Origin: Escherichia coli
GTDB lineage: Bacteria; Pseudomonadota; Gammaproteobacteria; Enterobacterales; Enterobacteriaceae
Length of the DNA stretch: 25,996 nt
Direction: 5' to 3' (one strand)
Assembly: GCF_003334315.1 (NCBI RefSeq)
Contig: NZ_QOWR01000064.1
Part shown: in pieces, positions 7,336-7,728 of the stretch
Position numbering within the stretch: position 1 is the first letter of the stretch
Layout: each line of letters begins with the position of its first letter
The notes under the pieces: generated by a model
Databases searched by the model: none
What the model was told of the DNA's origin: nothing
The model's input: the letters and a program-made list of their open reading frames with translations, nothing else
Translations under genes and position numbers: made by a program

Positions 7336-7728
7336 ATGATGCGCCAATCACTTCAGGCTGTTTTACCTGAAATTTCAGGCAATAAAACGTCATTGCTGCG
7401 TAAATCGGTATGCAGCGATCTCCTCACTCTTTTTAATTCTCCTCATTCGTCATTACCGTCATTACTTGTTTCAGGCATGCCCGAGTGGCAAGTGCATAAC
7501 CAGAGCGACAAACATCTCCAGAGCTGGTATTGCCGTCAGCTGCGTTCTGCACTGTTATTTCATGAGCCACGGATTGCGGCGTTGCAGGTTAATTTTAAAG
7601 AAGCGTACTGCCACACTCTGGCGATCAGCCTTGAGATAATGCTGTACCACGACGGTGAACCGCTAACGTTTGATCTGGTCTGGGATAATGGCGGTTGGTG
7701 TAGTGCGATGCTGGAGAATGTCAGCTAA
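7336..7728 (+). CDS. iraD: IraD, anti-adaptor protein stabilising RpoS (130 aa)
   Basis: Translation [30 protein letters not shown]… recognisable as IraD (YjiD); CAGGAG RBS 8 nt upstream of ATG 7336. The ORF-track start at 7327 is a GTG with no spacing to the RBS. Confidence 0.85.

Follow-up and report, generated by a model that had tools for sequence, protein, structure and literature searches.

Hairpin-dependent bidirectional terminator elements at convergent E. coli gene pairs were reportedly described in 2019 by Ju et al. The same kind of element, characterized as terminators that "do not resemble intrinsic terminators", was studied by Wang et al. (2022, bioRxiv 10.1101/2022.10.23.513370). 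In that model a stem-loop in the nascent RNA positions polymerase pausing and collisions at the convergent pair, and the collision model is more efficient for highly expressed gene pairs. Convergent genes in E. coli may also share bases at their 3' ends, and 58 such overlaps were counted by Lillo and Krakauer (2007, PMC2174442). The codon phase 123:132 is the commonest one for convergent overlaps of 5 nt or more (49%), and the loss or shift of a stop codon was proposed as the main cause of convergent overlaps (PMC2174442). Conway et al. (PMC4161252) reported complementary 3' ends for 276 of the 370 convergent operon pairs of K-12 (75%), with a mean overlap of 286 nt. Antisense promoters have been determined to repress in proportion to their strength (PMC4731013), and the convergent, 3'-overlapping pair arfA-mscL features antisense regulation of more than 2-fold (PMC10070815).

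The pair considered here consists of iraD (yjiD), which encodes an anti-adaptor protein, and hypT (yjiE/qseD), which encodes a LysR-type hypochlorite-responsive regulator. CsrA acts on the translation of iraD by way of the idlP leader ORF. HypT is switched on after translation, by methionine oxidation, and its transcript level is therefore not the known control point. A 2024 review of RpoS places the control of iraD at the promoter only, through ppGpp, DnaA, and SspA (PMC10948607). In E. coli the GimA locus lies between yjiD and yjiE, and three patterns, GimA+, GimA remnant, and GimA-, are distinguished in the available text of Homeier et al. (2010, PMC2878320). The same portion of that paper gives pattern frequencies of 64/20/16%, lists K-12 MG1655 as GimA-, and argues for vertical inheritance and reductive evolution of GimA.

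The window, that is, the whole stretch of 25,996 nucleotides that was analysed, carries iraD and hypT tail to tail. A first-pass annotation made from the letters alone described an 8-bp overlap of the two genes with no terminator between them and suggested that antisense interference could link them. The reading favored here, which is held to be probable, is that the overlap is real and is the ordinary GimA-negative form of the locus, most likely produced by a deletion, that a hairpin and Rho would serve the 3' ends, and that antisense contact would be incidental. The overlap itself is already known, since it is present in the reference annotation, belongs to a common class, and lies at a published polymorphic locus. 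What is mildly new is descriptive only, namely the correlates of GimA absence (the overlap, the IraD extension, and the hairpin loss) and a strong bidirectional predicted stem-loop.

The shared coding ends of iraD and hypT

The features at the junction are as follows.

7336 to 7728, plus strand: iraD (yjiD), anti-adaptor protein of 130 aa, stop codon TAA at 7726-7728 (sequence, ORF list, NF010726, PDB 6OD1, RefSeq)
7721 to 8632, minus strand: hypT (yjiE/qseD), LysR-type hypochlorite-responsive regulator of 303 aa (sequence, ORF list, NF007488, RefSeq)
7721 to 7728, no strand assigned: the 8-bp overlap TCAGCTAA (direct sequence reading; identical RefSeq annotation)
7256 to 7339, plus strand: idlP, the iraD leader peptide ORF (RefSeq annotation in a 100%-identical strain and in K-12; translation)

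Direct reading of the plus strand shows that iraD ends with ...GAG AAT GTC AGC TAA, and the minus-strand end of hypT reads ...ATT GTG CTT AGC TGA, in which TGA is the complement of 7723-7721. On the iraD side TCAGCTAA contains part of Val129, Ser130, and the TAA stop, and on the hypT side it contains the stop (the complement of 7721-7723), Ser303, and part of Leu302. The two genes lie on opposite strands with their 3' ends facing, both stop codons fall within the shared bases, both ORFs are genuine, and the codon phase of the overlap is 123:132. The sequence and the ORF list thus agree exactly with the overlap of 7721-7728 given by the first-pass annotation, and its placing of the iraD stop inside the last hypT codons holds as well, with TAA at 7726-7728 within Leu302-Ser303. 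At the other end of iraD the annotated start is the ATG at 7336, which overlaps the idlP stop as ATGA.

The gene identities that had been assigned from the letters are confirmed by RefSeq annotation and by matches to NCBIfam equivalog models. IraD, searched as a query of 129 aa starting at the second ATG, matches NF010726 with 295 bits over model positions 2-130 of 130, and HypT matches NF007488 with 696 bits over model positions 1-303 of 303. RefSeq annotates the same 8-bp overlap in K-12 MG1655 (iraD 4556993..4557385, hypT 4557378..4558289), in a 100%-identical strain, and in every other GimA-negative strain inspected. The presence of the overlap in the annotations of the 100%-identical strain and of K-12 MG1655 indicates that it is real and part of the reference annotation.

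An artefact of annotation or sequence, in which a stop is wrong, a frameshift is present, or one of the ORFs is no gene, can be given next to no probability. Both proteins match their equivalog models end to end, chain B of PDB 6OD1 covers IraD residues 17-130 with the C-terminal ...LENVS included in the crystallised protein, and the junction sequence is identical across hundreds of independent complete genomes. This reading was rejected on these grounds. A different true stop for either gene, which would have undone the overlap, is excluded for this sequence because both stop codons are unambiguous, the equivalog matches run end to end, and the 6OD1 protein includes the IraD C-terminus.

The gene hypT is the last one of the co-directional row yjiH-yjiG-iadA-hypT, and the 64-bp iadA-hypT spacer holds a further feature.

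8665 to 8692, minus strand: promoter-like site TTGTCA, 16 nt, TAGAAT (10/12 in a consensus scan)

This site is a possible promoter of hypT's own. The same spacer contains a perfect 12-bp inverted repeat, TGTCAGCCGCCC and GGGCGGCTGACA, with the arms 23 nt apart (8645-8691). The repeat overlaps the minus-strand promoter-like site (8692..8665), is kept in the hypT-less lineages L004 and L028, and could be a terminator-like hairpin of iadA or a site at the hypT promoter to which a regulator binds.

The hypT gene of E. coli O157:H7 86-24 is annotated as 855 nt (284 aa), with an N-terminus shorter than that of the 303-aa form and with the iraD overlap unchanged. This 284-aa form fits the short QseD isoform reported in EHEC. 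A second group of proteins named "HypT", 312-314 aa in length and 58-60% identical to the HypT of the window, is present in E. coli and E. albertii and is presumably a paralogue encoded elsewhere.

GimA alleles and the origin of the junction

The frequency of the overlap was determined in 5,426 complete E. coli genomes, which are a biased set, and the 1.55-kb iraD-hypT region matches 5,394 of them. A 71-nt probe across the overlap (coverage 80% or more) revealed the overlap junction in 4,881 genomes (~90% of 5,426). A junction between hypT and a remnant of a PEP-utilising gene is present in 266 genomes (~5%), and the ibeT/nhaC-hypT junction of the full ~20-kb GimA locus is present in 247 (~5%); the three classes sum to 5,394 and account for all genomes that match the locus. 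These proportions of 90/5/5% differ from the 64/20/16% in the available text of PMC2878320 because the genome set is a different and biased one.

The two alleles without the overlap were compared with the window. The remnant allele of strain C 237-04 features iraD of 127 aa, 47 bp, a 372-bp pseudogene of a "putative PEP-binding protein", 6 bp, and then hypT. In the full allele of strain HH45, nhaC, ibeA, dhaR, gcl, hyi ... dhaK, dhaL, and ptsP are located between hypT and an iraD of 127 aa. A blastn search with the HH45 GimA region found no GimA interior in the window, where it matches only the uxuB-uxuR, iraD, and hypT-iadA flanks. The site between yjiD (iraD) and yjiE (hypT) is the one occupied elsewhere by the GimA+ and remnant alleles, and the window represents the published yjiD-yjiE GimA polymorphism in its GimA-negative form. 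As in the GimA- pattern of Homeier et al., in the text available, the same two genes flank the site without GimA-derived DNA between them, and all three patterns were recovered here. The 8-bp overlap at the nucleotide level, the change of IraD from 127 to 130 aa, the loss of both hairpins, and the quasi-palindrome go beyond the retrieved text of that paper (PMC2878320).

The allele classes differ at both coding ends. In the GimA+ and remnant alleles iraD ends with ...ATG CCG CAG TAA and is followed by a hairpin with a 12-bp stem that is common to the convergent ptsP/pptE gene, and in HH45 hypT is followed by a 10-bp G+C-rich hairpin that is common to nhaC (ibeT/nhaC). The hairpins of the non-overlapping alleles have energies of -24 to -27 kcal/mol (z -4.0 to -4.6); in the remnant allele the 6 bp between the truncated pseudogene and hypT hold no hairpin. 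Both flanking hairpins and all of the spacer DNA are absent from the window. The last three codons of hypT differ between the alleles (IEPG/IEPS versus IVLS), and a dense cluster of substitutions separates the alleles in the last ~13 iraD codons. The overlap, the three-residue extension of IraD, and the loss of the two flanking hairpins all accompany the absence of GimA.

In the alignment of the window with HH45, the right-hand homology starts 12 nt outside the hypT stop and the left-hand homology stops 28 nt before the stop of the 127-aa form. Similar 10-11-mers are found at the two ends of GimA in HH45. On the iraD side GCAGTAAATG coincides with the stop, on the hypT side GCAGAATAATG lies just outside it, and the window holds one equivalent of these short sequences, GGAGAATG. 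A deletion between the microhomologies GCAGTAAATG and GCAGAATAATG most likely created the overlap, and we infer its direction as loss of GimA. Such a deletion would have removed the iraD stop, so that the frame now extends three codons further through Asn-Val-Ser (...NVS) to the TAA in Leu302-Ser303, the last two sense codons of hypT. Judged from the alignments, deletion is the simplest reading of the junction. In common with the convergent overlaps of PMC2174442, iraD and hypT share a few bases that include both stop codons in phase 123:132; what differs is that the shift of the iraD stop can be tied to a specific structural event, the absence of a 20-kb locus, instead of a point mutation in a stop codon.

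The flanking short direct repeats fit a deletion and would equally fit a target duplication on insertion. In the latter case the overlap would be the ancestral "empty site", and a GimA island would have inserted between the two stops, duplicated ~10 nt, and given iraD an earlier stop. The presence of GCAGTAAATG and GCAGAATAATG around GimA in HH45 and of one copy-equivalent in the window is a pattern that target duplication would give as well. In the available text of PMC2878320 the G+C content of GimA is 46.2% versus 50.8% and the locus is said to have been first described as a genomic island; additionally, the GTCAGCTAA junction is also present in the divergent Escherichia lineages L004 and L028. 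However, the same portion of Homeier et al. (PMC2878320) describes GimA as having neither mobility genes nor tRNA association, and its phylogeny as congruent with the core genome. Two further observations count against insertion. E. albertii, a cryptic clade, and B2 E. coli carry a pptE-like gene, or what is left of one in decay, at this very site, and there are several independent junction types (remnant, 21-bp overlap, and 8-bp overlap), as repeated deletions would give. An ancestral empty site is considered unlikely; it bears on the origin alone, and the functional verdict is the same either way.

Deletion alone does not account for the iraD segment. Between the window (7336-7728) and a B2 remnant strain (L018 1692-2075) the nucleotide identity of iraD is 80%, versus 95-97% for uxuR, hypT, and iadA. 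The 150 nt upstream of iraD are 69% identical between the same two strains, and the GimA+ and remnant strains examined lack yjiC and ytiC/ytiD (window ~5834-7000). The 80% identity of iraD indicates that the history of the junction includes recombination and not one simple deletion, and the segment looks like a deeply diverged or recombined haplotype. The B2 strain also features an idlP-like leader ORF, MEYEHQPSGVRQPGQDTDATKRQECAK* (L018 ~1612-1695), which has an ATGA overlap with the iraD start and is unannotated there.

A near-isogenic pair of loci shows where the two forms of iraD part. L027 has GimA1 genes and an IraD of 127 aa, and L028 has an IraD of 130 aa, a deletion of hypT, and the GTCAGCTAA junction. 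The two are identical up to iraD codon ~117 and divergent only after it, so that the last ~40 nt of the 130-aa form go together with the GimA-negative junction.

A profile search with an IraD alignment, run on one genome per species, returned only Escherichia loci and one contaminated Bacillus contig. Other arrangements found in Escherichia are listed below.

E. albertii NBRC 107761: full 793-aa pptE-like gene and hairpin adjoining iraD
Escherichia sp. E1V33: 426-bp decayed pptE fragment separating iraD and hypT
E. whittamii and one further strain: genes fused in another way, overlap of 21 bp, other C-termini
Escherichia strain E69: hypT absent, GTCAGCTAA kept
Other E. albertii: iraD directly adjoining iadA

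In some strains of E. albertii, hypT is missing from the iraD-iadA locus. The row yjiH-yjiG-iadA-hypT is conserved in Salmonella, Citrobacter amalonaticus, and Pluralibacter, where an Asp/Glu racemase gene converges on hypT at a distance of 5-7 bp and iraD is not its neighbor. These outgroup genera cannot polarise the junction event because iraD does not lie beside hypT there. The overlap is thus not conserved; it is polymorphic in E. coli and different or absent in E. albertii, E. whittamii, the cryptic clades, and the three other genera. Being lineage-specific and polymorphic, it is unlike a regulatory design. The Bacillus contig, NZ_ABFU01000118.1 (605 bp, labelled Bacillus coahuilensis m4-4), contains an E. 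coli iraD-hypT junction with the 8-bp overlap and an IraD that is 95% identical to that of the window, and it is almost certainly contamination in a Bacillus draft assembly.

A predicted stem-loop and the lack of a canonical terminator

The statement that no terminator lies between the genes needs to be divided. It stands for canonical terminators, since a consensus scan found no hairpin with a U tract in 6600-9000, and a relaxed scan (hairpin of -7 kcal/mol or better and at least 4 T in 8) found only weak, imperfect, branched candidates. Rfam at the gathering threshold gave nothing near the overlap in a search of the whole window. What the statement missed is a strong predicted stem-loop that is centred on the overlap, and two features are relevant here.

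7703 to 7748, no strand assigned: quasi-palindrome spanning the overlap (inverted-repeat search and RNA folding)
7643 to 7720, minus strand: C-rich, G-poor tract directly downstream of the hypT stop and antisense to the iraD 3' end (C 28 and G 13 of 78 nt)

The core arms of the quasi-palindrome, 7710-7721 and 7731-7742, are 11/12 complementary with a loop at 7722-7730, and beyond a 1-nt bulge the pairing continues between 7703-7708 and 7743-7748. The loop holds the overlap, and both stop codons are in or beside it. The stem consists of iraD codons ~123-129 (...Ala-Met-Leu-Glu-Asn-Val) and hypT codons ~295-301 (...Arg-Glu-Leu-Glu-Ile-Val). RNA folding predicts a hairpin of -26.8 kcal/mol on the plus strand (z -5.48) and of -24.3 kcal/mol on the minus strand (z -5.44), with 0 of 200 shuffles as stable in either case, so the stem-loop is formable in both transcripts with a z of about -5.5 on both strands. 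The energies in K-12 are the same, and the equivalent hypT flank in a GimA+ strain is without such a structure (-5 kcal/mol, z +0.85). The hairpin has no U tract on either side, being followed by AGUUCACG on the plus strand and CUACACCA on the minus strand, and it is therefore not a canonical intrinsic terminator.

The palindromic stem-loop at a convergent boundary, formable in both transcripts and lacking a U tract, resembles the elements of Ju 2019 and Wang 2022. There are differences as well; the iraD/hypT stem-loop lies wholly inside two coding sequences, whereas the others lie between genes. The mechanism of Wang 2022 favors highly expressed pairs, unlike iraD and hypT, which are probably weakly expressed.

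The tract downstream of hypT has a C/G ratio of 2.15, compared with 1.75 and 2.33 for the 95th and 99th percentiles of the window background, and it is a plausible candidate for a Rho loading region. No comparable C-rich tract is found for ~440 nt downstream of the iraD stop. In the proposed mechanism, each mRNA that passes its own stop by ~25 nt could fold a stem-loop of -24 to -27 kcal/mol, which would serve as a pause site and as a hairpin that protects the 3' end, as in a "bidirectional terminator element", and Rho would remove read-through, most plausibly on the C-rich 3' tail of hypT. The stem-loop and the C-rich tract would tend to limit read-through and not to promote it.

Variants of the junction were compared among lineages. 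In O157 and other lineages a synonymous change in iraD, CTG to CTC or CTT, loses one base pair and leaves a hairpin of about -20 kcal/mol, and the weakened hairpins range from -16 to -20 kcal/mol. Among the variants sampled there are no compensatory pairs, only synonymous changes that weaken the stem, and this uncompensated weakening argues against strong selection on the structure. Additionally, the stem is wholly coding and its conservation is therefore inseparable from protein constraint. The variants provide no evidence for selection on the hairpin structure, and none is claimed. An additional, natural nonsense change in hypT was observed in E. coli MLI106K3 (L020 1020-1075), where CTCCAG is changed to CTACAG on the plus strand and HypT has 298 aa. 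The hypT gene of this strain ends 7 bp past the stop of iraD, which leaves the two genes without an overlap, and its junction hairpin is ~-16 kcal/mol.

The loss of GimA might have fused the two coding ends into a de novo hairpin for bidirectional pausing or termination and mRNA stabilisation, in replacement of the two lost hairpins. The clustered substitutions in the iraD end and the last hypT codons might then reflect a template-switch "correction" of the quasi-palindrome or selection on the stem. This proposal is a speculative one that probably does not hold.

Possible antisense contact between the two transcripts

The overlap and the lack of a canonical terminator indicate that complementarity between the two mRNAs extends over no fewer than 8 nt and probably further. 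The first-pass annotation saw in this a possible interference between the two genes. In its full form, polymerases and mRNAs of iraD and hypT would meet head-on for want of a terminator, induction of iraD in stationary phase or upon DNA damage would lower hypT, or the reverse, by transcriptional interference or by degradation of the duplex RNA, and the overlap would be a functional cross-regulatory device that joins two stress responses. The real overlap and the absent canonical terminator are consistent with this, and, with no C-rich tract in the ~440 nt past the iraD stop, transcripts of iraD could extend a long way into hypT. In E. coli, antisense repression can also be demonstrated with convergent promoters (PMC4731013). 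[quoted passage not shown] Transcripts that overlap at their 3' ends are moreover the norm, as at the 276 of 370 convergent operon pairs (PMC4161252). A stable predicted stem-loop and a rut-like tract lie at the junction. In about 10% of E. coli genomes and in several Escherichia lineages, 0.4 to 20 kb lie between the two genes or hypT is missing, and the control of iraD in the 2024 RpoS review is promoter-based.

The closest precedent for such interference is arfA-mscL, which likewise consists of tail-to-tail, stress-related E. coli genes with complementary 3' regions. The co-location of arfA and mscL is enriched across Enterobacterales, and their regulation, of more than 2-fold and with RNase III sites, has been shown experimentally (PMC10070815). 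In contrast, the iraD-hypT adjacency is confined to Escherichia and polymorphic there, and hypT is paired with a different gene in other genera. Full-text literature searches found no paper that links iraD with hypT/yjiE/qseD by antisense effects and nothing relevant on iraD and antisense, and the searched 3'-end supplements of SMRT-Cappable-seq, Adams et al. Term-seq, and TRS list no entries for iraD or hypT.

The proposed antisense link between iraD and hypT thus finds no support, given an overlap that is not conserved, no link in the literature, and a hairpin and a C-rich tract at the junction. A cross-regulatory device is judged quite improbable. Interference is mechanistically possible in principle and a low level of it is conceivable, but any antisense contact of the mRNAs would come about incidentally, as a side effect of the junction and not as an evolved regulatory link.

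The iraD/hypT overlap is statistically unremarkable. A second convergent ORF pair in the window consists of a 218-aa plus-strand ORF that ends at 11827 and a 392-aa minus-strand ORF that ends at 11840, and the gap of only 12 bp indicates that very tight tail-to-tail junctions are common locally. The consequence of the overlap for stress-response biology is small, as it shows no sign of being a regulatory device. Its value is modest and lies in a worked example of how a short convergent overlap arises, one that can be tied to the presence or absence of a known 20-kb locus. The structural change at GimA altered the C-termini of both proteins and swapped two intergenic hairpins for one in coding sequence, and the GimA+, remnant, and GimA- strains provide a series of natural alleles for effects of the overlap. 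For work on either gene, a deletion or tag at the 3' end of one also changes the other, since the iraD stop lies within the last two sense codons of hypT.

The sole Rfam match in the whole window is the SymR antitoxin RNA (RF01809, 91 bits) at 24854-24930. SymR is antisense to a 132-aa minus-strand ORF at 24518-24916, which is presumably symE.
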